Source: a virus
Lineage: Duplodnaviria > Caudoviricetes
Virus record (IMG/VR): IMGVR_UViG_3300043344_000002
Location: 1-64,000 of that record
Direction: 5' to 3' (one strand)
DNA: 64,000 bases
Each line of letters starts with the position of its first letter. The first letter of the stretch is position 1. Shown here piece after piece: positions 18,522-48,505 of the stretch. Below the pieces are notes generated by a model. That model was not told the DNA's origin. It ran no database searches and was given only the letters and a program-made list of their open reading frames with translations. Position numbers and translations under genes: made by a program.

Positions 18522-18935
18522 TCAGCTCTCGGCCGCGACGTCTTCGTCGGCCGGCTCTTCAGCGGTCTTCGCGGCCTTCGGCGCGGGCTCGGGGAGAACG
18601 GTGCCCGGGAGCGCCCAGGTCTTGCCGTTCAGCTTGGCGACCTTGCCGGCGTTCCGCAGACGCCACAGCGAGAGGTACACCAGGTTGCCGGCGATCTCCA
18701 GCTCGGTGGCGATCTGGTCGCGCGTCTTCGGTCCCGCAGCCACTGCAGCGAGCACCTTCTCGTCACGATCGACGGCGCCGGGATCACGCGGACGACCCTT
18801 CGCGGTGGCTTCCTCCGACGCCTCAGCAGTTTCGCCCGTCTCGGCAGCCTCAGCTTCTGGGGCCTCAGGAGCCTCGGGCGCACCAGTGAAGTCCATCGCG
18901 GTCTCTTCAGTCAGTTCTTCAGTGCTCATCTTCAT
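18522..18935 (-). CDS. winged-HTH protein with acidic tails
   Basis: KGRPR plus GPKTRDQIATELEI..NLVYLSLWRLR..GKV. Confidence 0.65.
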   Translation of the reverse strand: MKMSTEELTEETAMDFTGAPEAPEAPEAEAAETGETAEASEEATAKGRPRDPGAVDRDEKVLAAVAAGPKTRDQIATELEIAGNLVYLSLWRLRNAGKVAKLNGKTWALPGTVLPEPAPKAAKTAEEPADEDVAAES

Positions 18936-18956
18936 CCTTCGTTCGGTGGCTGTGGT

Positions 18957-20213
18957 TCAGCCTTGCTTGTGACCTACCCGAACAGTATCAGGTCGGCGTA
19001 CTGGTTGTACACTGGTGGGGCGGTGAACTTCTTTCTTGATCAGCCACTCACGGTCGCCAACGAGCTCACCTCTCACTGGACCTCGTTCACCGTCCAGTGT
19101 GTTCTTTGCTTGCTCACCGATCCACTTTCCACACTGCGAAGATATACCTTTTCCCCAGGTCGCCTTCAGTGTTGCGTTATGACGAAGAGGGTAGATGTTC
19201 CAGTCATCGGGAAAACCCATGATGCGAGCAACTTCACGGTGAGAGACGAACCGAGGTTGCGTGGGGTGGAGCACAAGGTCCAGTGCACCACCCGTGATAA
19301 CACGTGCCGACCGGGAATTGTCCCACCTCGTCACTGAGATGTACCCCATGTGGAAGTTGGTGCGAACCAGCTTCTCCACCATGTAATCCCACGATGGAGG
19401 GAGCTTGTTGTACTTGCTATAGAAGTACTGAGCGAACCTGCCGACGTGCCAACTCTGCGGCCAATCTTCACCGTGCTGTAGTCCCATGTGAAGAAGGTCG
19501 AGAGTCCGTCGATGCGCGACACCCGTCCGCGTTGTATGCCCGTCTACACTGCTGGTTCTCTCGCGAGGCTTCTCTGACCACCAGGAGGCCGGTTGCCGAT
19601 AAGGCTGCGGAAGCCAGGTCTGAGGGAGGTTCTCGATGTCACCGATGATATCAGGCAAGAGTGGCACCCGGATGTTCGACGGGTACTCGACACCGAACGG
19701 AAGCTGTGATGCCACCCAAAAGTACCGTTTACGAACTGCCGCGCCACCTAGCTCCAGTGCGTCGTGCATGACGTGATAGAGACCGTACCTCAACCCACTC
19801 TTCGCCTCAAGATTCGCGCGAAGCTCCTGCATGAGGATACGACCCTTGGAGTACGCCGGACGCACCGACTCCATAATGACGATTTGTGGCTTCATGCGCG
19901 CCGCGTAGTTGGAGAGCGCCCACATGCACTCGCTGACCTTGGCGTCAACACCACGATGATTCTTGTCGGTCATTACCGAGAACGCACTGCAGGGCGGGTT
20001 GGAAGCCAGCACTTCGGCGTCTTTCACGATCCACGTGTTTGGGTCACCGACCTGATACGTCCAGTCTGGACCCAGGACACCACGATTCGCGAGGCAGTTC
20101 GGCATTCCGAATCCTCCGCGTTGCTCCACTTTATGCACAAGTTCGAAGCCCGCCTCCACCATGCCGACGTCGAAGCCGCCAGCGAAGGTTTGTGATGCGA
20201 CGAACTTGTACAC
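18957..20213 (-). CDS. C5-cytosine DNA methyltransferase-like protein
   Basis: FAGGF, NPPCS.FS, ESV, R.RYF and REVARIMGFPD motifs. Confidence 0.8.
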   Translation of the reverse strand: MYKFVASQTFAGGFDVGMVEAGFELVHKVEQRGGFGMPNCLANRGVLGPDWTYQVGDPNTWIVKDAEVLASNPPCSAFSVMTDKNHRGVDAKVSECMWALSNYAARMKPQIVIMESVRPAYSKGRILMQELRANLEAKSGLRYGLYHVMHDALELGGAAVRKRYFWVASQLPFGVEYPSNIRVPLLPDIIGDIENLPQTWLPQPYRQPASWWSEKPRERTSSVDGHTTRTGVAHRRTLDLLHMGLQHGEDWPQSWHVGRFAQYFYSKYNKLPPSWDYMVEKLVRTNFHMGYISVTRWDNSRSARVITGGALDLVLHPTQPRFVSHREVARIMGFPDDWNIYPLRHNATLKATWGKGISSQCGKWIGEQAKNTLDGERGPVRGELVGDREWLIKKEVHRPTSVQPVRRPDTVRVGHKQG

Positions 20214-20215
20214 TC

Positions 20216-20812
20216 TTACTCCCTAGGACGAGGCGTATGACGCCTATTGCAGCGCGGTGTGCCATCAGCATCGGTGTAACATCCCGCGGTGTCGGCATAA
20301 TCGCACGAGCAATATGGACACGTCTCTTCTTTATTAACGATGAACATGTCTGTCTCACCGCAGTAAGCTGCGCCACCATTTACACGTGGCTTAGCAGGTG
20401 TGCAATTGATGTCGTCGTCGTAAGCACGCTTGCAGCCCGGACACTTCGTCGACACACCGTCGTAGGTGCCACTCGACATGCGGTCACGATTGACCTGCTG
20501 CTTGGCCTGGTAGGCAGCGACCCACTCCTCGTCGGTAACACCGATGGCAGCGAGAATGTTGGCCAAAAAGTGGCCAACGTCGACCGCTTCCTTCAACGCG
20601 AGTTCACGGTTGACCCAACCACGGTTCTTCGTCCAGATCTTCCACCCGAACTCACTTAGGAGTTCGCCAGCCTCCAGGACCAGTGCAGAGTGGTTCCACG
20701 TCACATAATCAGCGAGTGCATCGCCTTCAGGAAGCGGGAGTTTAAAGCCGAATGACTTTTCCTGGAGTTTCTTAGTGGACTCAAGCCACTTCCACACGTT
20801 GGGATCAGCCAC
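20216..20812 (-). CDS. dimeric dUTPase/MazG-like NTP pyrophosphatase with Cys-rich tail
   Basis: EAGELL..FGWK.W, KEAVDVGHF and K...N..R motifs; start moved to GTG 20812. Confidence 0.8.
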   Translation of the reverse strand: MADPNVWKWLESTKKLQEKSFGFKLPLPEGDALADYVTWNHSALVLEAGELLSEFGWKIWTKNRGWVNRELALKEAVDVGHFLANILAAIGVTDEEWVAAYQAKQQVNRDRMSSGTYDGVSTKCPGCKRAYDDDINCTPAKPRVNGGAAYCGETDMFIVNKEETCPYCSCDYADTAGCYTDADGTPRCNRRHTPRPRE

Positions 20813-21083
20813 CGTGCACCTCACCTGACGTAGCTGGCTCATCGTGAAACGAGAAGGGATCACGTGGGGAGGCAACGGCACGCACCAGGAGCATGTAGCC
20901 CATCCTGAAGTGCTCGCGTGCTTCACGCGTCAAGTCGTAATCGGTGTCGATGTTGTCATGCTCGACGATGGCTTTCCAGAGCGCAGCAAGGTTTTCCTCG
21001 TGTGCTTTGATGGTGTTGATGGTATCACGCTGCGTGTCATTCATCTCGTTATAACCGTGAAGCTTTCCGTCATCTGTTGACAT
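20805..21083 (-). CDS. Acb2/Vs.4-like cyclic-nucleotide sponge
   Basis: K..GY......D.IN.IK and G.M.LVRAVA.P..F match my recollection of the Acb2 pattern. Confidence 0.65.
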   Translation of the reverse strand: MSTDDGKLHGYNEMNDTQRDTINTIKAHEENLAALWKAIVEHDNIDTDYDLTREAREHFRMGYMLLVRAVASPRDPFSFHDEPATSGEVHGG

Positions 21084-21664
21084 TAGCTCTTCTCCTTGTA
21101 CTTCTCGTAAAGCATGCCACTTGGGTGGTACGACCCAAGCTGCTCTGCCGTCAACACATCTGCAGTGCTACAAACGAGTGCGTTGATAATCGCCAACTGG
21201 ACTGCCACCGATACCGTGGGAATTGTCCCATGCTTGGAGCCATCTTCATCAATTCGGTATGCTAGTGCGATTTTACACCGCTCGGCTAGTTCACTTTGGT
21301 GGTTGCCCGTTACCGTTGCAGTAATCACTTTATCACCGGCGTGCTGCTCGATGATGTTCCGCGCATCAAGAACTTCATACGTCTCGCCTGAGTGACTAAT
21401 GAAAATGACGACATTGTGCTCGATCTTCGAGATCATCCCAAGACCACCATGGAGCAAGTCTGTGGTGTGGATTGCGGACGCGCGGTATCCTACCGACTGC
21501 AAGAGCGACGCGCCCAGCTGCGCTACCCCAAACGACTTACCAACACCGGTTAGTGTCACAACTCCGGTGAGTTCAATGAATTCACGAAGTTGCTTGATGA
21601 CTTGGTGGTCCAGATTGCGCTCGAGTCGCTCGAGTGCGTAGATTGTTTTGCTGATGACGTCCAC
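21083..21664 (-). CDS. SIS-domain sugar-phosphate isomerase (KdsD/GutQ arabinose-5-P isomerase-like)
   Basis: TGVGKS, HG.LG.I, ISHSGET.E, PT.S and HP.G.L motifs. Confidence 0.85.
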   Translation of the reverse strand: MDVISKTIYALERLERNLDHQVIKQLREFIELTGVVTLTGVGKSFGVAQLGASLLQSVGYRASAIHTTDLLHGGLGMISKIEHNVVIFISHSGETYEVLDARNIIEQHAGDKVITATVTGNHQSELAERCKIALAYRIDEDGSKHGTIPTVSVAVQLAIINALVCSTADVLTAEQLGSYHPSGMLYEKYKEKS

Positions 21665-23172
21665 TATCCCACGATCTCCTTAATCAGTTGAACACCGCGG
21701 ATGATCATAGCTTCGCGCTCGAAGTAGCTATGGAGTGGTGCACCAGCAAGAAGTAGGCAACCCTCGGCGACCTGCAATTGGTCGAGTGAGATGTACCCGT
21801 CAAGGAACGAATCCATTGCTGCGGTTTCCTTAGTGCGGTCAGGCAGCAGCGCACCAGTTTCATAATCAAAAAGTCCGTGCGTGATTGCCGAGAACCCGGC
21901 GTGATATGAATATCGCAGTTTTGCCAACTCATAAATGAGTGGCATCGTTGCATTGCCACGCGGGTCGATAAGCTTGAACGTGCCTGTGTTGATCGAGTAG
22001 AGGATGTTGTTGAAGTTCAAGTCCCCGTGCGCGCGCACCATCGACGAGGTCCCAAACACTTCGCTCGCACGCTCGAGGAGATCAAAATGCTGAGCTGCGA
22101 GTCCGTGTTCAAACTTGGTGAGTCGCTCGAGTGCCTTACCAGTAAACCACGTCGCTACACTCGCGCGATCCGCAACCTCTGGTCGTGACTTGCCCGACCA
22201 CCAGAGATCAAGTTCGAGTCGGTCCACAACTGACTGAAGAATCTGTGCCCATGTGTCAGGTCGACCAGGCCAGTAGAGCCACAACTCGGAGAGCGTGGGT
22301 AGATCGATGTACTCCATTTCATAGCCATCATCAATGACGTTGTAGATGCGAGGTACGAGATTCGCTGACTTTGCTGGCTTCGTCGACTGCTCAAGCAGCC
22401 AACTTCGCTGCGCAAAGAATTGCTCGCTGGTGCCCTTCTTCGTAAGAATTCCGGCGTTGTCCAGTGAGAGAGTGTGCTCAGACCGCGCGATGAATCGAGT
22501 TCGGCGTGCAGTTGCGAGAGCGTGCACATCACCGATGTCAAGCCAAGTCGAAAACTCGATCGTCTTGGCGGCAGTGAAACACGAGAGTAGCGGTCCCATG
22601 CCAACTTCGTTCTCGTCGTTGGCAGTGGCTGACGCCACTACAAGACTAGCTTCGCTCATCAACTCAACGGTGTCAACGAAGTGGTACGCACCGATGGTGA
22701 CAAAATCTGCCATGTGTACTTGCTTGTCGACGTACGTGCCATCATTTTTACGCACACAGAATGAACGATGGCCAACTGGAGTTCGAGCCTCGCCAATCCA
22801 CGTTCCCGAGTACTGTGCGAGCTTCTCTTCGATGAATGTGTCACTCATCAAGATGTACGTATCATGCATGTGACGCTCAACGCCAAGTGCGTGTAGGCCT
22901 ACGAGAATCGCGTCCACCGGACCACGTGAAACGTTCTGTGATACGACCTTGATGTTGTAATGCCCGGCACGCTCGAGTGCCATCTGGACCTGGATGTGCG
23001 TGGCCGGATTCGCTACAACGACAATGCGCATGCAACCCGCGGCACGAAGCAACTCGATTTGGTGAAAGACATGAGGTCGCTGACCGATGGACACCAAAGC
23101 CTTGCTAATCTGCGTTGATAGTGGCCCAAGACGTGATGCCTTACCACCCGCGAGAATGATTCCGTTACTCAC
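21664..23172 (-). CDS. sugar nucleotidyltransferase fused to an APH/choline-kinase-like domain
   Basis: ILAGG.ASRLGP.....SKAL and WLDIG, then HGDLNFNNI and LIDPRG. Confidence 0.85.
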   Translation of the reverse strand: MSNGIILAGGKASRLGPLSTQISKALVSIGQRPHVFHQIELLRAAGCMRIVVVANPATHIQVQMALERAGHYNIKVVSQNVSRGPVDAILVGLHALGVERHMHDTYILMSDTFIEEKLAQYSGTWIGEARTPVGHRSFCVRKNDGTYVDKQVHMADFVTIGAYHFVDTVELMSEASLVVASATANDENEVGMGPLLSCFTAAKTIEFSTWLDIGDVHALATARRTRFIARSEHTLSLDNAGILTKKGTSEQFFAQRSWLLEQSTKPAKSANLVPRIYNVIDDGYEMEYIDLPTLSELWLYWPGRPDTWAQILQSVVDRLELDLWWSGKSRPEVADRASVATWFTGKALERLTKFEHGLAAQHFDLLERASEVFGTSSMVRAHGDLNFNNILYSINTGTFKLIDPRGNATMPLIYELAKLRYSYHAGFSAITHGLFDYETGALLPDRTKETAAMDSFLDGYISLDQLQVAEGCLLLAGAPLHSYFEREAMIIRGVQLIKEIVG

Positions 23173-24473
23173 AGTCCGAGCCGCCTCTCGATGATGGTGA
23201 CGCAGCGTTGACGCTCGAGTTCACGCTTGAAGTGTTCGTACTGGACCCTGGCCAACCACTCATACGTAGAGCGTGATGTAGTGACTGCCTTCACCTTACG
23301 AGCAAGATCGGATGGATCTTTAATCCGAAGCCACTTATGTAGTGCTCGCATTTCGTCTGTCGGTACGTCTCCCATGGGAAACAAAATGTGATCTTGCGTG
23401 TCGTATGCCGGGTGCATGAAGCAGATGATACCCGTGGCAAACGATTCCCAGGGCTTAGCCGTTGCCCAACCAGATCCAGAGGAAGGCGTTGTGAAGGTGC
23501 ACTTGGTCGTCTGCATGAGGTTAAAGATTTGGTTGTACGGGATTGGCTTGATATCCGTGTTCAGCTTGGTCAGTGAGTCTTTCGACCAGGTCCCGTGTAC
23601 CCAGGAAGGGCCGAGGGGTCGGACGTAGTGCTCCATGGCATGGAGTCGAGTGAACTCTGGACGCATGCCATAGTTGCGCGCCTCGTTGATGAGGATTCCG
23701 AAATCGTGATCTCGATCTTCCCATCCCGCGGGTTCTTTTTCACCGAAGCTACGAGGAATCCCGACGAGCTCGAGGCCGGATCCCATGTAAGTATCAGTCG
23801 TTCGCCAGCGCTCTCCGGTTGCATCGGGGCGGGCATGAAGCATGTTGAATCCGTGCTCTTGCGGGGTTCGGGTATCCCCATATCGCTCGTTCCACTCATC
23901 ACGTGTCCAGTCGAATTGGCTTAGGATGGGATGACGGCGTGGCCACATGAGATCACGCGATTTTAGATAATTGCGTGCATCTGCGAGAAGCCAGATTTCT
24001 TCACGCTTTAGAGGATCTACAGCGCGCCAGCGATTAATGCCACGAGCGATGAACGACGCGTACCTGACAAATGCCGCCTGTGGATTCGTGACAACGTTGC
24101 GGTTGTCCACCCTGGGAATTGGCGAGTTGCTTGTGCCGTGCTGCCCAAGCCAACACACCATACCGTCAAGTGAATCGAACGCTGGGCCGGTGATGCGATC
24201 GAGTTGATCAACACAATCTTGCATCGATGCCTTCGCATGGGAGCGTGTTTCAGTTCGCCATTCCTGCCACGGATTCGTGATGTTAGGCATATGCGGTGCC
24301 CAACCGGAGTTCTTGCCGACGACGACCCATTCGATGTCGGGGTTGCGCGTGGCTAGCTGCTCAAGTAGATACGGAGCCTCATTGTCACCACCGCACTCTC
24401 CCCACTTCTTCGGGTCGATCTCGATGACCCGGCCTAGCTTTCCATACCCAATGCGCTTACGAAACGTGGGCAT
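23169..24473 (-). CDS. putative DNA glycosyltransferase (GT-B-like)
   Basis: GGDNEA, D.RNY, FGILINE, G.W and GWATAKPWE....G.ICF.HP.YD.Q motifs; heads the sugar operon. Confidence 0.6.
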   Translation of the reverse strand: MPTFRKRIGYGKLGRVIEIDPKKWGECGGDNEAPYLLEQLATRNPDIEWVVVGKNSGWAPHMPNITNPWQEWRTETRSHAKASMQDCVDQLDRITGPAFDSLDGMVCWLGQHGTSNSPIPRVDNRNVVTNPQAAFVRYASFIARGINRWRAVDPLKREEIWLLADARNYLKSRDLMWPRRHPILSQFDWTRDEWNERYGDTRTPQEHGFNMLHARPDATGERWRTTDTYMGSGLELVGIPRSFGEKEPAGWEDRDHDFGILINEARNYGMRPEFTRLHAMEHYVRPLGPSWVHGTWSKDSLTKLNTDIKPIPYNQIFNLMQTTKCTFTTPSSGSGWATAKPWESFATGIICFMHPAYDTQDHILFPMGDVPTDEMRALHKWLRIKDPSDLARKVKAVTTSRSTYEWLARVQYEHFKRELERQRCVTIIERRLGL

Positions 24474-24634
24474 AACGATCGTCCTTTCCGAATGATCTGT
24501 TGATTCCTCAACGATAACTGAGGCTCGGTGTCTTGTGGCTACTCACACCGACTTACGTCCCATCAAGTAGTCTCACCAATGCCTGGGGGCAAACGTTGGG
24601 AATTGACGGAAAGGGAACCTCGTCGTTGATCGTA

Positions 24635-25333
24635 CTAGATGGGCAGCTCGGGCGGAGGCGGCGAGCTATCCGCGGGTGCGGAGACCTCCTCAGCGGGCGG
24701 TGCAACCGGCTCCGGGGTTGCTACCGGTGTAGCTGCCGGAGGTGCCACTGGGGCAGGCTGGGGAACCGGAGCAGGCGGCTGAACGGGAGCAGGCGGCTGA
24801 ACGGGGGCGGGCGCAGGTGCCGGAGCGGGGGCCGGAGTAGGTGCAGCGACGGGAGGCACAACAGGGCCAGTAGGCGGAGCCACGAGCGGTCCCGCGTTCG
24901 GCTGCCCAGCGATGGGCGCACCGGTGTAGGGCTTCACGCCCTTCACTTCATTACGCATTTCACCGGCCCACTCGCGCTGTCCGAGGGTCAAGCGAGCGCG
25001 ACGACCAGCGAGAGCACCGGCGACAGGCTCGAGACTTCCGGCCGGGCCGAGCGCAGCGAAGAACTCGTCGGTGAGACCGAAGCACTTCATCTGGCGGAAG
25101 AAGATCGAGACGGCGACCGCGTTGTCCAAGGAGAGCACGAAGTTGTTGATGATCGGCCGGTTCATGTGCGGACCGGAGATGACCTTCATCTTCGCCTTGA
25201 GCATTGGCTTACCGTTACCCGACGTCACAGCATCACACGAAGTGATCTCGACGTCGTAGTCACCGTTGGGAAGAGGCTCGAAGCTGACTGTCTTCGCATC
25301 AGCAAGAGCCTTGCTGAAGTCAATCGTGGTCAT
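24635..25333 (-). CDS. DUF669-like ssDNA-binding protein with Pro/Ala-rich tail
   Basis: FEPLP.GDY.V.I, SG.GKPM and RNEVK motifs; PVQPPA repeats. Confidence 0.75.
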   Translation of the reverse strand: MTTIDFSKALADAKTVSFEPLPNGDYDVEITSCDAVTSGNGKPMLKAKMKVISGPHMNRPIINNFVLSLDNAVAVSIFFRQMKCFGLTDEFFAALGPAGSLEPVAGALAGRRARLTLGQREWAGEMRNEVKGVKPYTGAPIAGQPNAGPLVAPPTGPVVPPVAAPTPAPAPAPAPAPVQPPAPVQPPAPVPQPAPVAPPAATPVATPEPVAPPAEEVSAPADSSPPPPELPI

Positions 25334-26196
25334 ACGATAAGCTCCTTAGTTGCGACGGGTGCCACTGTATCAACCGCTGGTTGCACGTCGAATACGATGT
25401 TCATCCAGTTTGTGATGTCATTTCCGACCCAGTGGCCATCCGTCTTGATGATGGTTTGACAGTTGCCCAGTCGCCCCTGGACCCGCTCGCCACACGAGTA
25501 CTGTGGGTGAGGCCCGATCCAGAGGCGACGCACTTCTTTAGTTGGCTGCCCGTTTGCGTCGAGTTCCCAGTCTGGGTACAAATAGCCCGCTATATCAACC
25601 CAGTACGGGAGCGACACAGAAATCTGCCCCTGCATGTACGGCTCCCACTTGCCTGAGCCGTTATTCTGCCTCGTCTCAGCGATGAACATCACGCACCGAG
25701 TGTTGAGGGTAGGGATAAGTGCGAGATCACGGAAGCCACGAATGACTGTGTCCATCTGCATCAGCAGTGCACCCCAGTCCTGCATCTTCATTTGCTCGCT
25801 GCCGACCAACTGTGTCTTACAACGACGCTGAATCTCGGTAATGGAGTCGATCACCACCGAGACAAAAGGTGTGATGTACTGGGTGAGCCAGTTATACACA
25901 AGCTGCACCGTGCCCCAATCACGCACGTTGACGATGCACGCTTCCCACGTGCCGTCATAGATGGGCGGACCACCAGGCGTAGTGGGGTCCCAGAAAACTT
26001 TCTTCACTGGAATGAAACGCCAGCTGCCCTCGGCGTCAAGAACGAGCACTGGCTTCGGCGCAGTGGAAGACAGGGTCGACTTACCCATCTTCGAGGGACC
26101 GTGAATCAACAACGAGAGACGTTGATTCGTGTCATACATCATGGGAGGATCGATGGCGACAGGCGTCACCGGAGTGTTGAGAACCGAGTCGGTCAC
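25330..26196 (-). CDS. AAA ATPase (Sak4/AAA_24-like)
   Basis: Walker A GPSKMGKS; LDAEG; VVIDSITE. Confidence 0.85.
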   Translation of the reverse strand: MTDSVLNTPVTPVAIDPPMMYDTNQRLSLLIHGPSKMGKSTLSSTAPKPVLVLDAEGSWRFIPVKKVFWDPTTPGGPPIYDGTWEACIVNVRDWGTVQLVYNWLTQYITPFVSVVIDSITEIQRRCKTQLVGSEQMKMQDWGALLMQMDTVIRGFRDLALIPTLNTRCVMFIAETRQNNGSGKWEPYMQGQISVSLPYWVDIAGYLYPDWELDANGQPTKEVRRLWIGPHPQYSCGERVQGRLGNCQTIIKTDGHWVGNDITNWMNIVFDVQPAVDTVAPVATKELIV

Positions 26197-33179: not shown

Positions 33180-33869
33180 TCAGAGCAGTTCGGCATGTAC
33201 GTCAACACCGAGTGACAAGAGTAGACGAGTACCACTGTCATCGCGGTACTGTTCAGCGGCGACGACTCGAACAATGCCTGCGTTCATAATCAGCTTGGCG
33301 CACTCCAAGCATGGAGCCATGGTCGTGTACAACGTAGCACCTTCGGTTGCCACGCCATTCTTCGCGGCAAATGCGATGGCGTTAGCCTCAGCATGAACAC
33401 TGAACTTACACGGTTGACGTGATGCGCATTCTACCCAGTGATGCTTGGGATCAGGGTTCGTTGGCAGCTTTGTGCAGTCACACGCGTGATTACAGTGAGG
33501 AAGTCCGGCGGCGGTGCCGTTGTACCCACTGGACACTGGCCTCGTCTCAATGACGATGACAGCACCGACCTGTGCGCGAGAGCATGTGGCACGATCGGCC
33601 ATCAACTTTGCCATTTGCATGAGTGTCTGATCCATCGATGGACGCGTGATGACGACCTTACGAAATGGTACCACAAATTGTGCGTGATACTTACGAAGCG
33701 TTGCGATGGCCTCATCGCGAGTGATGAAGAACATTGTTGACTTACGCTTATCAGTGGCGGTCCAGGAGTATCGCAGACCGTGATTTGTGATACTCGCCCA
33801 CGTAATTCCAATGCGTTCACCATCGTTGGTAAAGATAGCCATGGCTGTGTCAGAACTTTCCTCACTCAT
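33180..33869 (-). CDS. dCMP deaminase
   Basis: C.R.QVGAV, GYNG, HAE.NA and PC..CAK motifs. Confidence 0.9.
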   Translation of the reverse strand: MSEESSDTAMAIFTNDGERIGITWASITNHGLRYSWTATDKRKSTMFFITRDEAIATLRKYHAQFVVPFRKVVITRPSMDQTLMQMAKLMADRATCSRAQVGAVIVIETRPVSSGYNGTAAGLPHCNHACDCTKLPTNPDPKHHWVECASRQPCKFSVHAEANAIAFAAKNGVATEGATLYTTMAPCLECAKLIMNAGIVRVVAAEQYRDDSGTRLLLSLGVDVHAELL

Positions 33870-34735
33870 ACTGGTACCGTATCTTCACTTGGGAGTAGGG
33901 TCTCGATTAGGTCAAGCTGCTTAGTGTACCACGGATTGGCTTCATCTTCAGCCGTTGTCGTGTTGCCATCAAGCAGGTAGGCTGCTATGTCGATTGAGTA
34001 CGTCTCGCGGTTGGGTGAGCAAATGCCAAGTGGCAAGTCAACGAAATCGATGTCAGTCGGCGCGTGCAACTTATTCGCAGCTGCGATGTCACGCTCGTAA
34101 ATGTGTAGACTTGTCGTGTGGTGCACGTACTGACCAACGGGCATACGCAGTTCATTTGCGATGGTGTGTTGAAGCTGCGTGAACATGAAGATGTCGTATG
34201 GTACGCCCAACCACACGTCCTGACTACGCATGTGCGTGTGCATCTCTAGTGCTGCAAAGCCATGACCACTCTCGCGAATGAGAAATTGGAAGAACACGGT
34301 GCACGGCTTATCACCAACGTGTCGAAGATCTGCCTTGTTCCAGATGCTCACAATCGCTTGCCGACTGGACGGATCATCCTTGAGGAGTGCGATGCAGTCT
34401 GCGAGCTGTTCGACCACGCGCGGACCGTACGCTCCGTAATCGGGATCTGTAGCATCCACCAGGACACTTTCGAACGTTGGAGCAGCTACCCTGACCAGGT
34501 CGGCTCGGGCAACACCAGAGATGAGCTGGAGCGCTTCAAGCGCCGCCAACTTCAGGTTCACCCCACGTCCAACACCGATTGGAAGTAGTGGTTCGAGCGT
34601 GTTGGGAATGATCATTGTCACAGCAGTGAGTTCACGCGTCGGCATGTCGCGTACGACTACGTGTTCACCACGATTGATCACATGGTTTACGAGCTTGACG
34701 TAACTACCACGTAGATCATTGAGCTTCAGTTCCAT
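33866..34735 (-). CDS. thymidylate-synthase-fold enzyme, probably dCMP hydroxymethylase/hydroxylase
   Basis: YGPR, SRQA, PC, RSQD..LG.PYD and SLHIYE motifs; Asp at the position that is Asn in ThyA. Confidence 0.75.
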   Translation of the reverse strand: MELKLNDLRGSYVKLVNHVINRGEHVVVRDMPTRELTAVTMIIPNTLEPLLPIGVGRGVNLKLAALEALQLISGVARADLVRVAAPTFESVLVDATDPDYGAYGPRVVEQLADCIALLKDDPSSRQAIVSIWNKADLRHVGDKPCTVFFQFLIRESGHGFAALEMHTHMRSQDVWLGVPYDIFMFTQLQHTIANELRMPVGQYVHHTTSLHIYERDIAAANKLHAPTDIDFVDLPLGICSPNRETYSIDIAAYLLDGNTTTAEDEANPWYTKQLDLIETLLPSEDTVPV

Positions 34736-35700
34736 TAGGACCCTTCAACACGATCGTAGAGTGTTACCTGATTACGATCGATGATATCGCTTACATACTC
34801 TGCCGCTGAACCGTGCTTAAACCTGCGAATGAATTGGGGGTGATGAACTGAACGATCAACCCAGTGCGCTTCCTTGCCCGCTTTACGACCAAGTGCAACC
34901 GACGTTGGCGTACCCAACGTGTGTCGTAGCAAGTGAATGTCATCAACGTCGCACGCGTTGGCGATACCGATGGTGTTAAGCCAACGTGGGTCGGCGTGCC
35001 GAGCAAGTGCGTTTGTGAGGTAGTGCCCAGAGGTGGACGGGTATGGCATAAACGCTGGACGGAAGTCACCTCGATCTCGCGGAAGTTCAAGATCGTGACG
35101 TACATCACCAACGAGAAGCAACCTCGGTGAGGGCGGGCCAATATACGTTATGAACGAATTGAGCTTCGCTGTGGCCGTCGACTCAACGCAAGCTCGATGA
35201 ATGATGGCTTGGATGGTGTCATCAGTCACGTGTCGGCCATCTACGCGAACTACCGGCAGTATGGTCTTTTCTTCGACGAAGCTGTAGAGCGTGTTGAGCT
35301 CGTGACCCTTGCCCGGTTCAATGAGATCATCACCGCGACGAGAGATGCACTGCTCAAGAGTGCGATCATCAGCCATCACATGAACAACAATCGCACCACG
35401 GGAGCGAAGAAACAACTCAATGTGTAGGTTGATGCCGGGGTCCAGTTGGGAGGGACGGTGTAGTACCGTGGGGTAGACCGATTCGCCCCAGTGGAACCGA
35501 TCGCAGATGATGTGGTGCCCGATTTGGGGGCGGTAGCGAAGTAGTGGAGTTTCGTACTCATCGAGTGGATGCAATTCAGGTGGACCCTTATGAATAAGAG
35601 TCACGTCGTTGTTGGGAAATTGCTTCTCGAGTTCACATGCGAGTTTACTCGCAAGAGTTGATTTCCCGCTACAGTCGGGCCCTTCGAGAATTATGAGCAA
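34735..35700 (-). CDS. dNMP kinase fused to a UDG-superfamily-like domain
   Basis: EGPDCSGKST and DR.HWGE; C-terminal LLLVGD...SG.YL...N...VALG..A...HHPQ. Confidence 0.7.
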   Translation of the reverse strand: MLIILEGPDCSGKSTLASKLACELEKQFPNNDVTLIHKGPPELHPLDEYETPLLRYRPQIGHHIICDRFHWGESVYPTVLHRPSQLDPGINLHIELFLRSRGAIVVHVMADDRTLEQCISRRGDDLIEPGKGHELNTLYSFVEEKTILPVVRVDGRHVTDDTIQAIIHRACVESTATAKLNSFITYIGPPSPRLLLVGDVRHDLELPRDRGDFRPAFMPYPSTSGHYLTNALARHADPRWLNTIGIANACDVDDIHLLRHTLGTPTSVALGRKAGKEAHWVDRSVHHPQFIRRFKHGSAAEYVSDIIDRNQVTLYDRVEGS

Positions 35701-47818: not shown

Positions 47819-48505
47819 ATGAAGGTTGATCTGCTCGCGTTCACGGCCATCACGCCTACCGCACTCGAGGTTCTGGAGTATCAGCGAGGAACGGCAGCGG
47901 CCGACCACCTTGCGGAACTCGGGGGGCGCGAATGCTACCAATCTTTTCACCGGCCTAACTCGAAGACGGCCGAGAACAAAGACTACCTACGACACATCCT
48001 CGAGATCGATCACACGTCGATCATGGAACACAGCAGTGCGACGTTCCGTCTCACGGAGGTGAGTCGAAACCTGCTTGTGGAGCTGACTCGGCACAGGCAC
48101 CTCTCGTTCTCGGTCCAGTCGCAACGTTACGTTGATGAGTCATACGGGCAGATGATCATCCCGCCCGACATCATGGGAAATGCGGCGCTCTCTGGACTTG
48201 TGGAGAAGATCGATCACTTCCACCAGGACGCGAAGATTCTTTACGATGAGATCGTCGACACGATGATGAAAGAGGGCTACAAGCGTAAGCAGGCGAGGCA
48301 GGCGGCCAGGGCCGTGCTCCCCGGTGGACACGAGACACGCATCATCGTCACGGGAAACATCAGGGCGTGGCGACACGTGATCCACATGCGCTTTAGCGAG
48401 CACGCTGACGTGGAGATTCGCGAGATGGCCGGAAAGATTCTTGCGCACTTGCGCGTCATCGCGCCGAACCAGATGCAGGACATCAGCAGCGATCCTCGTC
48501 AGTGA
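47819..48505 (+). CDS. thyX: flavin-dependent thymidylate synthase
   Basis: GRECY.S, H.SI.EH, ELTRHRHLSFSVQSQRYV, AR.VLP and HAD.EIR motifs. Confidence 0.95.
   Translation: MKVDLLAFTAITPTALEVLEYQRGTAAADHLAELGGRECYQSFHRPNSKTAENKDYLRHILEIDHTSIMEHSSATFRLTEVSRNLLVELTRHRHLSFSVQSQRYVDESYGQMIIPPDIMGNAALSGLVEKIDHFHQDAKILYDEIVDTMMKEGYKRKQARQAARAVLPGGHETRIIVTGNIRAWRHVIHMRFSEHADVEIREMAGKILAHLRVIAPNQMQDISSDPRQ

Follow-up and report, generated by a model that had tools for sequence, protein, structure and literature searches.

Results

The window analysed here is a 64,000-nucleotide stretch from an uncultured 93-kb soil actinophage. At positions 18957-24473 on the minus strand it carries a block of six tightly coupled genes, and about 10 kb upstream of this block lie the genes for a YorR-type nucleotide kinase, a ThyA homologue and a dCMP deaminase. 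The relevant features are as follows.

11176..13413, plus strand: GT2, GT4-like GT-B glycosyltransferase with a LAGLIDADG intein at about 11980-13110 (intein and LAGLIDADG Pfam matches)
18957..20213, minus strand: MTase-like, divergent C5-cytosine-methyltransferase-like protein (PF00145 DNA_methylase, E = 3.6e-18)
20216..20812, minus strand: MazG-like, MazG/dimeric-dUTPase-like all-alpha NTP pyrophosphatase with a Cys-rich C-terminal tail (PF08761, phrog_18650)
20805..21083, minus strand: orf92, orphan 92-aa ORF (sole match phrog_717, unknown function, 4.4e-8)
21083..21664, minus strand: SIS, single-domain protein of the arabinose-5-phosphate isomerase type, no CBS domains (PF01380, TIGR00393, phrog_5670, PDB matches)
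21664..23172, minus strand: fusion, AfhE-like, sugar-1-phosphate nucleotidyltransferase (N-terminal) and APH-like sugar kinase (C-terminal) (PF00483, hhalign)
23169..24473, minus strand: GT1, GT-B glycosyltransferase of an unnamed family, predicted DNA (5-hydroxymethylcytosine, 5hmC) glycosyltransferase (AlphaFold2 fold, structural matches)
33180..33869, minus strand: dCMP deaminase (PF00383, 5.2e-25; phrog_174, 2.9e-51)
33866..34735, minus strand: ThyA homologue with a dCMP-hydroxymethylase (T4 gp42) signature (PF00303, 4e-28; active-site alignment)
34735..35700, minus strand: nucleotide kinase, YorR/thymidylate-kinase-like P-loop domain (residues 1-167) plus an extra C-terminal domain (phrog_761, 1.4e-13)
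47819..48505, plus strand: ThyX, the phage's own dTMP synthase (PF02511, E = 5.4e-48)

The five block genes named in the initial annotation, and the synthase and kinase it had placed further upstream, are all present, the five with overlapping or nearly touching boundaries. GT1 and the fusion gene overlap by 4 nt, and the fusion/SIS and SIS/orf92 pairs by 1 nt each. The MazG-like ORF spans 20216-20926 at its longest; with the alternative GTG start at 20812 it overlaps orf92 by 8 nt, and a gap of 2 nt separates it from the MTase-like gene. The sixth gene, orf92, has no tblastn match among 80 related loci, is missing even in the closest relative (L006) and shows no similarity to RB69 gp51. The phage carries a family-A polymerase (PolA) and WhiB and matches no sheath family, features that mark it as a phage of an actinobacterium and not a T4 relative. 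A 933-aa ORF of tape-measure size, together with the lack of a sheath match, makes the earlier description of the phage as a siphovirus plausible.

Arabinosyl-5-hydroxycytosine systems, with their Afh genes, have been described in Escherichia phage RB69, Acinetobacter phage DLP3 and E. coli phage HY126 (PMC13326640, PMC6024577). In HY126, AfhE, the counterpart of RB69 gp53/gp52, is reported to act both as a kinase of arabinose-5-phosphate and as a UDP-arabinose pyrophosphorylase (PMC13326640). The fusion protein of the window has the same domain order as gp53/gp52. Residues 4-121 match PF00483 NTP_transferase (E = 1.3e-17), and hhalign with the family alignment relates the N-terminal half to gp53 (97.9%, E = 6.3e-13) and the C-terminal half to the kinase part of gp52 (97.6%, E = 2.6e-12), although the relationship is remote, at 22-25% identity. 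The C-terminal half carries HGDLNFNN...IDPRG, of which HGD..F.N and DPRG do not vary within the fusion family, and a split homologue in locus L042 gives a Pfam APH match.

The SIS protein (PF01380, E = 2e-13) has TIGR00393 KpsF/GutQ as its best NCBIfam model (6.3e-22), matches phrog_5670, "arabinose 5-phosphate isomerase" (5e-17), and is 26% identical to RB69 gp55. Its four PDB sequence matches, 5uqi (6.7e-17), 3etn, 2xhz (E. coli KdsD) and 3fxa, are all arabinose-5-phosphate isomerases or single SIS proteins, and the motifs GVGKS, HGxLGM, SxSGET and YHPxG are kept. The initial annotation had proposed an enzyme set different from that of RB69; this holds for the transferase family, whereas SIS and the fusion are homologues of gp55 and gp53/gp52. 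What is missing is an AfhF-type HAD phosphatase, which is absent from the whole 93-kb genome (no HAD_2 match and no RB69 gp51 homologue) and from every actinophage-type locus with isomerase and fusion, so that the arabinose route is incomplete as encoded.

This gap is one argument for a reading in which the DNA carries glycosylated 5hmC but the sugar is not plain arabinose, either because another sugar phosphate is activated or because NDP-arabinose-5-phosphate is formed and a phosphorylated pentose transferred. The SIS scores, far under the equivalog cut-offs of KdsD and GutQ, point the same way, as do marine loci and Enterococcus phage 9183, where a HAD gene stands beside an AfhE-like gene without a nearby SIS, suggesting that AfhE-like enzymes may serve several sugars. 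A host phosphatase could, however, supply the missing step, SIS and an AfhE-like fusion are likewise paired in RB69 and DLP3, and both the PDB and PHROG matches of SIS to arabinose-5-phosphate isomerases and its intact catalytic-site motifs favor arabinose. A sugar other than plain arabinose is unlikely.

The kinase, ThyA homologue, deaminase, GT1, MazG-like and MTase-like genes are conserved together in about 65 related IMG/VR loci. What lies between GT1 and the MazG-like gene varies among related loci: isomerase plus fusion, an epimerase, an RGP-like gene plus epimerase, a kinase plus nucleotidyltransferase, or none of these. Such variety is expected if GT1 takes a donor supplied by its neighbors and transfers it to a constant acceptor.

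GT1 belongs to no Pfam, NCBIfam or PHROG family in HMM searches, but has 581 metagenomic homologues. Its AlphaFold2 model (pLDDT 89) adopts a GT-B fold, to which T4 β-glucosyltransferase (BGT) is the nearest structure in VIA-align (Z = 21.7, RMSD of 3.3 Å over 307 amino acids), followed by BshA (18.2), T4 AGT (17.9) and the HY126 glycosyltransferase (15.7). The margin of BGT over the next unrelated family is +3.5 in Z, and BGT entries occupy Foldseek ranks 1 to 4, 6 and 7. In the profile comparison with phage DNA glycosyltransferases proposed earlier, the hhalign match to BGT is weak and confined to a C-terminal stretch (E = 0.0012, probability 19%), no sequence relation to RB69 gp46:47 is detectable, and none of the characterised DNA glycosyltransferases is linked significantly to GT1 by sequence. 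GT1 belongs to a different family from the RB69 transferase, and its model is structurally nearest to BGT. In T4, bgt adjoins gene 42; likewise, a distance of 1-2 kb separates the GT1 homologue from a gp42-type ThyA homologue in the marine T4-like loci L070-L084 as well as in locus L011.

In at least 17 related loci the GT2 homologue lacks the intein and its exteins are contiguous. The AlphaFold2 model of the homologue from locus L037 (pLDDT 93) finds 7qsg as its best VIA match (Z = 26.3), then PimA, BshA, MshA and sucrose-phosphate synthase. GT2 is a candidate second-sugar or other transferase.

Virion-protein glycosylation has been described for some mycobacteriophages, and the GT-B fold leaves the acceptor of GT1 unfixed. 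The transferases might thus act on virion proteins or a component of the host envelope, with the ThyA-homologue pathway serving an unrelated nucleotide modification. The position of GT2 at the end of the late/lysis genes, its resemblance to generic GT4 enzymes (PimA, MshA, BshA) and the want of a sequence-level family for GT1 fit such a non-DNA target. It is nevertheless quite improbable, given that a DNA glucosyltransferase is the best structural match of GT1 by a clear margin, that recombination/replication genes and nucleotide-pool enzymes flank GT1, whose homologues adjoin gp42-type genes in two other lineages, and that hydroxymethylated cytosine put to no further use beside a conserved transferase would be unusual.

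The base on which GT1 would act is suggested by the active site of the ThyA homologue. Aligned to ThyA structures and T4 gp42, it has KPCT with Asp at Cys-3 (L143D), RSQD, in which D169 is kept, and PYD (N177D), a signature found in 38 of 40 related loci. Within the ThyA family, N177D denotes dCMP specificity and L143D/E a non-methyl product, whereas D169N is diagnostic of 5-hydroxy-dCMP synthases, Asn being present in all 5hodC producers tested (PMC13326640). D169N is absent from the window protein, unlike the enzymes of RB69 (gp48, RSQN in the same alignment) and DLP3, and the predicted acceptor is accordingly 5hmC, not 5-hydroxycytosine. The modified cytosine of the initial annotation would then not be the hydroxylated cytosine of RB69. 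For 5-hydroxycytosine to be the acceptor after all, the D169N rule, derived from a restricted number of assayed enzymes (PMC13326640), would have to be less than universal; the RB69-like sugar enzymes lend this some appeal, but with Asp169 kept as in gp42 throughout those 38 relatives and Asn in every tested producer, it is highly improbable.

The remaining nucleotide enzymes are compatible with such a role. The separate ThyX makes dTMP, which frees the ThyA homologue for another function. The adjacent kinase matches YorR in the PDB (2axp/3kb2, 4.9e-6) and is 31% identical to gp43 of Enterococcus phage 9183 (E = 5e-11), and for its C-terminal part (165-321) a language model points only weakly to viral UDG-like clusters (0.88). 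The MazG-like protein matches PF08761 dUTPase_2 (E = 3.6e-9) and phrog_18650 "dUTPase" (E = 2.5e-30) and has local similarity to T4 gp56 (E = 6e-7); its KCPxCxRA..DD tail is common to most relatives, and no trimeric dUTPase was found in the genome. It is a candidate dCTPase/dUTPase analogous to gp56, the dCTPase activity being assumed from its superfamily.

The MazG-like gene adjoins the MTase-like gene in about 50 loci. The MTase-like protein carries FAGGF, PPCS, ESV, RKRYF, REVARxxGFPD and GKG in place of canonical counterparts (FxGxGG, PCQ, ENV, QxRxR, GNAV), and its catalytic Cys, Glu and Arg are conserved. Its linkage to glycosyltransferase and MazG-like genes recurs across IMG/VR loci and marine T4-like loci, and also in the five actinophage neighborhoods inspected out of 15 GenBank records, making it an invariant partner of the module and one that fits poorly with a complete exchange of cytosine for 5hmC. 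That this constant and seemingly catalytic partner modifies cytosine after replication (to 5mC or another C5 adduct), with later processing and glycosylation and a minor part for the ThyA homologue, is hardly probable at all, because the genome has no TET/JBP oxygenase, and hence no known way to hydroxylate 5mC, and the gp42-type ThyA homologue is, together with its kinase, just as well conserved.

Discussion

The gene set combines elements of two known pathways. With RB69, DLP3 and HY126 the phage shares an arabinose-5-phosphate isomerase, a bifunctional nucleotidyltransferase-kinase, a cytosine-specific ThyA homologue with a YorR-type kinase as its neighbor, GT-B transferases and an all-alpha NTP pyrophosphatase, and here too the product is predicted on DNA cytosines. 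It differs from them in its T4-type Asp169, in lacking AfhF, in the added C5-MTase-like gene and in its actinobacterial host. The T-even pathway to glucosyl-5hmC uses T4 gp42, gp1, gp56, Cd and the alpha- and beta-glucosyltransferases; its counterparts here are the gp42-type signature, the dCMP deaminase, the gp56-superfamily pyrophosphatase, the BGT-like fold and, in related loci, the linkage of transferase and gp42-type genes. In contrast to the T-even phages, the donor is predicted to be phage-made, not UDP-glucose, the sugar cassette is exchangeable, the kinase resembles YorR and not gp1, the sequence of the transferase is remote from GT63, and a C5-MTase-like partner is present.

Related modules occur in the cultured actinophages Micrococcus phage Kurnik, Gordonia phages Sixama, Forza, GodonK and GMA2, and Actinomycetia phage DSL-LC01. 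As in the window, an MTase-like protein (34-40% identity) is preceded by a MazG-like gene, with WhiB downstream. At least one glycosyltransferase is annotated upstream in Kurnik, Sixama, GodonK and DSL-LC01, the last of which also has a UDP-galactopyranose mutase, whereas the upstream genes of GMA2 are all annotated as hypothetical. Sixama and Kurnik have gp42-type ThyA homologues. Unlike in the window, the transferases are not GT1 homologues and none of these phages has the SIS-fusion cassette; the searchable literature yielded nothing on their DNA chemistry. Compared by genes alone, the gp43-gp48 block of Enterococcus phages 9183 and Planchet (Denvervirus) encodes, in order, a kinase, a ThyA homologue (RSND...PYD), a dUTPase, a small HAD, a nucleotidyltransferase-kinase fusion of 544 aa and a 406-aa protein with weak resemblance to GT1 (pairwise E = 5e-10 at 20% identity), but, unlike the window, it has the HAD phosphatase and lacks the SIS isomerase and the C5-MTase-like gene.

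We consider it rather probable that the locus specifies T-even-type DNA hypermodification with an RB69-type sugar supply, in which 5hmC is glycosylated with a phage-made pentose. The earlier proposal of a self-made NDP-pentose and glycosylated cytosine remains the best-supported reading in this form, amended by a route without AfhF and a base enzyme of gp42 type. From the genes observed, their homologies and active-site signatures, the folds predicted for them and the conservation of their neighborhoods we infer every chemical step, as well as acceptor, sugar and nucleotide carrier. The ThyA homologue would convert dCMP to 5-hydroxymethyl-dCMP, which the adjacent YorR-type kinase and host kinases would raise to the triphosphate, while the MazG-like enzyme would lower dCTP and dUTP, and dCMP deaminase and ThyX would supply dTMP. 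The family-A polymerase would then build 5hmC into DNA. For the donor, SIS would convert ribulose-5-phosphate to D-arabinose-5-phosphate, the kinase half of the fusion would phosphorylate C1, a phosphatase not encoded by the phage would have to remove the 5-phosphate, and the nucleotidyltransferase half would form NDP-arabinose, analogous to the UDP-arabinofuranose of RB69, DLP3 and HY126. In newly made DNA, GT1 would attach the sugar to 5hmC at its hydroxymethyl group, and GT2 may add a further sugar.

Most likely, then, this phage builds its DNA with hydroxymethylcytosine instead of cytosine and caps it with an arabinose-type sugar of its own making, a mixture of the DNA camouflage of T4 and of RB69. 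The variable slot, which a large phage clade has in common, appears, by gene content, to hold alternative nucleotide-sugar cassettes that are swappable.

Gene block and predicted sugar supply

Six minus-strand ORFs make up the block at 18957-24473; their neighboring ends overlap or lie 2 nt apart, and the tight coupling described in the initial annotation is thereby confirmed. Read together with base-forming genes elsewhere in the IMG/VR record (93,054 bp, ~98% complete by CheckV; the window is its first 64 kb), it probably equips the phage to cap 5-hydroxymethylcytosine (5hmC) in its DNA with an arabinose-type pentose of its own making. We are more confident of glycosylated 5hmC DNA as such than of this whole chain. 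The genes concerned are as follows:

18957-20213, minus strand: C5-methyltransferase-like gene (MTase-like; PF00145)
20216-20812, minus strand: MazG/dimeric-dUTPase-like gene with a Cys-rich tail (MazG-like)
20805-21083, minus strand: orphan 92-aa ORF (orf92), between the isomerase and MazG-like genes
21083-21664, minus strand: SIS isomerase, 193 aa, putative arabinose-5-phosphate isomerase type
21664-23172, minus strand: nucleotidyltransferase-kinase fusion, 502 aa, NTP_transferase match at residues 4-121
23169-24473, minus strand: GT1, transferase with a predicted GT-B fold (AlphaFold2 model)
11176-13413, plus strand: GT2, conserved GT4-like GT-B gene located where the late/lysis genes end, with a LAGLIDADG intein at ~11980-13110
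15768-16115: WhiB gene, marker of an actinobacterial host
33866-34735, minus strand: ThyA homologue, aligned to ThyA structures and T4 gp42
34735-35700, minus strand: kinase matching YorR, adjoining the ThyA homologue
47819-48505: ThyX, the phage's own dTMP synthase

All models and structures matched by the SIS isomerase in NCBIfam, PHROG and PDB are arabinose-5-phosphate isomerases (KpsF/GutQ, phrog_5670, 5uqi, 3etn, 2xhz), and the segments GVGKS, HGxLGM, SGET and YHPxG are retained. It is 26% identical to RB69 gp55, which suggests that this feature of the arabinosyl-5-hydroxycytosine (Afh) system is present. A heptose pathway (GmhA/HddC), suggested by the pairing of a SIS protein with a nucleotidyltransferase, was rejected on the strength of these matches, the HddC match having an E value of 0.008.

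The fusion protein carries HGDLNFNN and IDPRG in its C-terminal half, and HGD..N and DPRG are invariant in the family alignment. Comparison of this alignment with RB69 proteins by hhalign retrieved gp53 (nucleotidyltransferase half, 97.9%) and gp52 (kinase half, 97.6%) in the same order. RB69 gp52:53 is a single gene split by a sequencing error and corresponds to HY126 AfhE, which is reported to combine a kinase for D-arabinose-5-phosphate with a UDP-arabinose pyrophosphorylase (PMC13326640). The window protein is thus a candidate bifunctional nucleotidyltransferase and sugar kinase of the AfhE type. The initial annotation had proposed that a self-made NDP-pentose is transferred to modified cytosine by an enzyme set different from that of RB69-like phages; the outline stands, but the isomerase and the fusion are homologous to those of RB69.

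The claim of a self-made NDP-pentose is supported by these two genes but incomplete with respect to the phosphatase. Neither a PF13419 (HAD_2) match nor a homologue of RB69 gp51, as expected of an AfhF-type HAD phosphatase, was found in the whole 93-kb record, and three HAD queries that readily detect related marine loci returned nothing from any actinophage-type locus. Neither orf92 nor the MazG-like protein is similar to gp51, and a phosphatase hidden in one of them was therefore rejected. The missing AfhF-type enzyme would imply that a host phosphatase is used, that the sugar is a different one, or that a phosphorylated pentose is activated; a phosphatase nonhomologous to AfhF and the HAD queries may also be encoded in the genome. 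The ORF orf92 is absent even from the closest relative (L006), and its sole match is a PHROG of unknown function. Scans for promoters and terminators across 18000-25500 gave counts at or below shuffled expectation and nothing usable.

Precursor base

In the alignment of the ThyA homologue, GDKPCT ... RSQDVWLGVPYD corresponds to SDFMCT ... RSNDVVFGFRND of T4 gp42. The catalytic Cys is present, and Asp occupies the positions of L143 (Cys-3), D169 and N177. Among these marks, N177D denotes dCMP specificity and L143D/E a non-methyl product, while D169N is diagnostic of 5-hydroxy-dCMP synthases (PMC13326640). The window protein therefore appears to carry the dCMP hydroxymethylase signature of T-even phages (N177D, L143D/E, D169, catalytic Cys) and lacks the mark of the Afh system: in the same alignment run RB69 gp48 reads RSQN, with Asn, whereas the window protein reads RSQD, with Asp. 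Of 40 homologues encoded in related loci, 38 likewise have Asp at position 169. These active-site residues point to 5-hydroxymethyl-dCMP as the predicted precursor, as in T4, rather than to the 5-hydroxy-dCMP of RB69. Because the phage encodes ThyX, the ThyA homologue is not needed for dTMP.

The structure of YorR, matched by the adjoining kinase, is also listed as the top match for the DLP3 nucleotide kinase (PMC13326640). The dCMP-type synthase and dNMP kinase that had been noticed upstream of the block are thus accounted for by a ThyA homologue with the gp42 signature and a YorR-like kinase. A cytosine-type acceptor is still predicted, but the hydroxylated cytosine of RB69 gives way to a hydroxymethyl signature of T4 type. 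Residues 165 to 321 of the kinase form an extra C-terminal domain of ~155 aa without an HMM match, for which a language model gave the sole lead, viral clusters that are annotated in part as UDG (similarity 0.88).

Transferases

GT1 is assigned to no Pfam, NCBIfam or PHROG family and has 581 metagenomic homologues. With its AlphaFold2 model (32 homologues as input; pLDDT 89) as the query, Foldseek placed T4 beta-glucosyltransferase (BGT) entries at ranks 1 to 4, 6 and 7. VIA-align gave a Z score of 21.7 for T4 BGT (rmsd 3.3 Å, 307 of 344 residues), followed by BshA (18.2), T4 alpha-glucosyltransferase (17.9) and the HY126 DNA glycosyltransferase (9iqz; 15.7). The comparison with phage DNA glycosyltransferases suggested in the initial annotation thus identified T4 BGT as the nearest fold of the model, while the link between sequence profiles is weak (hhalign E value of 0.0012, probability 19%, C-terminal stretch only). 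The GT1 family has no sequence relation to RB69 gp46 or gp47, and its profile retrieved chance matches only among PDB sequences. Neither megablast with the 5.5-kb block nor tblastn with GT1 found a match among 50,697 phage records, so that cultured phages hold no recognizable GT1. The donor is predicted to be other than UDP-glucose.

The GT2 intein sits between FNAAK and SWLKPLE, and GT2 occurs without an intein in at least 17 related loci. The model of an inteinless homologue resembles generic GT4 enzymes such as 7qsg, PimA, BshA and MshA. The same structures are also listed for the DNA glycosyltransferases of DLP3, RB69 and RL38J1 (PMC13326640), a resemblance that is not decisive for the acceptor of GT2.

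MazG-like and methyltransferase-like genes

The MazG-like protein belongs to an all-alpha superfamily that includes T4 gp56 (PF08761, phrog_18650), with a local match to gp56 of 41 residues (E value of 6e-7). Its Cys-rich tail (20216-20460) contains KCPGC ... CPYC ..., the first CPxC..RA..DD element is kept in most relatives, and the tail may be a zinc ribbon.

The MTase-like protein scores 66.5 bits against PF00145, for which the curated cutoff is 22. Canonical C5-methyltransferases such as M.HhaI carry the motifs PCQ (IV), ENV (VI), a GNAV-like element (X) and FxGxGG (I). These forms are absent from the MTase-like family, which has PPCS/PPCA, ESV/ENA, GKG and FAGGF throughout and keeps the catalytic Cys, the Glu and RxR. 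In all the loci examined, those of the actinophage type and the marine T4-like ones alike, the module closes with this gene, which is also its most constant partner across two lineages. Full replacement of cytosine would leave a C5-methyltransferase-like enzyme without an obvious substrate. Some phages reportedly follow a TET/JBP route, in which 5mC is converted after replication to 5hmC and then glycosylated, the dioxygenase gene lying beside those for a C5-methyltransferase and a glycosyltransferase. Such a route would join methylation to hydroxylation; it was rejected, since a search of the whole record for PF12851, the TET/JBP dioxygenase family, was empty.

Related loci

The GT1 alignment was used for a pattern scan of IMG/VR, and the 80 loci retrieved were compared by tblastn with 17 window proteins. 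About 65 of the 80 share one gene order: kinase, ThyA homologue, dCMP deaminase, PolA, SNF2, nuclease, AAA_24, DUF669, GT1, a variable stretch of 0 to 2.3 kb, MazG-like and MTase-like. The variable stretch, or slot, holds the following alternatives:

SIS isomerase and fusion: the window, its close relatives L005 to L007, and L009, L017 and L065
NAD-dependent epimerase/dehydratase alone: some relatives
RGP-like protein and epimerase: some relatives
APH-family kinase and separate nucleotidyltransferase: some relatives
Unknown protein and nucleotidyltransferase: some relatives
Empty: L056

A constant transferase beside exchangeable nucleotide-sugar genes argues that the donor comes from the neighbors while the acceptor is constant. 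In many relatives (L013, L018, L024 at 11350-13439, L025, L044 and L046), an RGP-family protein, alone or with an NAD-dependent epimerase, replaces the isomerase and fusion. The Pfam family RGP comprises UDP-arabinopyranose mutases of plants; a furanose or pentose donor may here be made by a second route resembling that of plants, or the slot may encode a GT75-like transferase.

A second, distant group (L070 to L084), in which the GT1 homologue is ~28% identical, belongs to T4-like phages of marine origin that carry PolB, UvsX and a gp41-like helicase. The order here (for example, L075:8124-14315) is gp42-type ThyA homologue, HD protein, small ORF, GT1 homologue, AfhF-like HAD, AfhE-like fusion or others, and C5-MTase-like gene, with uvsX directly after. 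In an independent lineage, the GT1 homologue thus adjoins a gene of dCMP hydroxymethylase type, like bgt and gene 42 in T4. The module order is the same as in the actinophage clade.

Host and cultured relatives

The WhiB gene and the nearest cultured relatives by polymerase and MTase-like protein, which infect Microbacterium, Arthrobacter, Micrococcus and Gordonia, identify a phage of an actinobacterium, as had been proposed. The earlier designation as a siphovirus is also plausible: a family search of the genome found no tail-sheath family and a 933-aa tape-measure-sized ORF lies upstream of the tail genes, so that a long noncontractile tail is likely. Minus-strand genes for replication and nucleotide metabolism occupy ~14.3 to 42.3 kb, with RtcB, DUF7873, the kinase, the ThyA homologue, dCMP deaminase, PolA, SNF2 helicase, a PD-(D/E)XK nuclease, AAA_24 and DUF669, then the block.

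The MTase-like protein occurs in only 15 of the 50,697 phage records, all actinophages. The MazG-like gene precedes it in the five neighborhoods inspected, those of Micrococcus phage Kurnik (L086), Gordonia phages Sixama (L087), GMA2 (L090) and GodonK (L092), and Actinomycetia phage DSL-LC01 (L091). Annotated glycosyltransferases lie upstream in all but GMA2, whose upstream genes are all annotated as hypothetical; the order in the other four is glycosyltransferase(s), MazG-like, small ORF, MTase-like and then WhiB. DSL-LC01 has a UDP-galactopyranose mutase as well, and Sixama and Kurnik encode gp42-type ThyA homologues. Unlike in the window, the transferases of these two phages are not GT1 homologues: GT1 is not similar to the 442-aa protein in the equivalent position in Kurnik or to Sixama gp126.

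Enterococcus phages 9183 (L001, NC_055907 28004-32956) and Planchet (L002) have a similar block, composed of a kinase, a ThyA homologue (RSND...PYD), a dUTPase, a small HAD protein misannotated as "phosphoheptose isomerase," a nucleotidyltransferase-kinase fusion and a weak GT1 relative. Judging by this gene content, Denvervirus phages of Enterococcus faecium may have DNA with glycosylated 5hmC. The literature searched yielded nothing on the DNA chemistry of these phages and nothing relevant on actinophage hmC, Kurnik or a Gordonia phage hydroxymethylase, and the Planchet paper does not mention DNA modification.

Implications

By glycosylating cytosines, phages classically protect their DNA from restriction enzymes and CRISPR. 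The arabinose version was resolved recently, to our knowledge only for T4-like phages of Gram-negative hosts, in which it is borne on 5-hydroxycytosine. A bolder combination, which we consider rather unlikely, is that arabinose is carried on 5hmC instead, an undescribed derivative, and that the MTase-like protein is a catalyst of the pathway acting on the modified cytosine of DNA. The sugar could then even be arabinose-5-phosphate, as no AfhF is encoded, and the MTase-like protein would be something other than an ordinary antirestriction methylase, for example an enzyme that covalently activates 5hmC, or residual cytosine, at C6.

The locus predicts that an actinophage outside the T4 group joins an RB69-type sugar supply to hydroxymethylcytosine of T4 type, and that in a large clade of soil phages the sugar cassette is exchanged on a fixed chassis of base enzymes and transferase, with an unusual C5-methyltransferase-like enzyme as a constant partner. 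The chassis is present in cultured Kurnik, Sixama, GodonK and GMA2, which makes the predictions on hmC, glycosylation and the MTase-like protein directly testable. They bear on sequencing and cloning artifacts and on host-range limits in work with actinophages. If true, the exchange of cassettes on one chassis would amount to a natural glycodiversification system for DNA.
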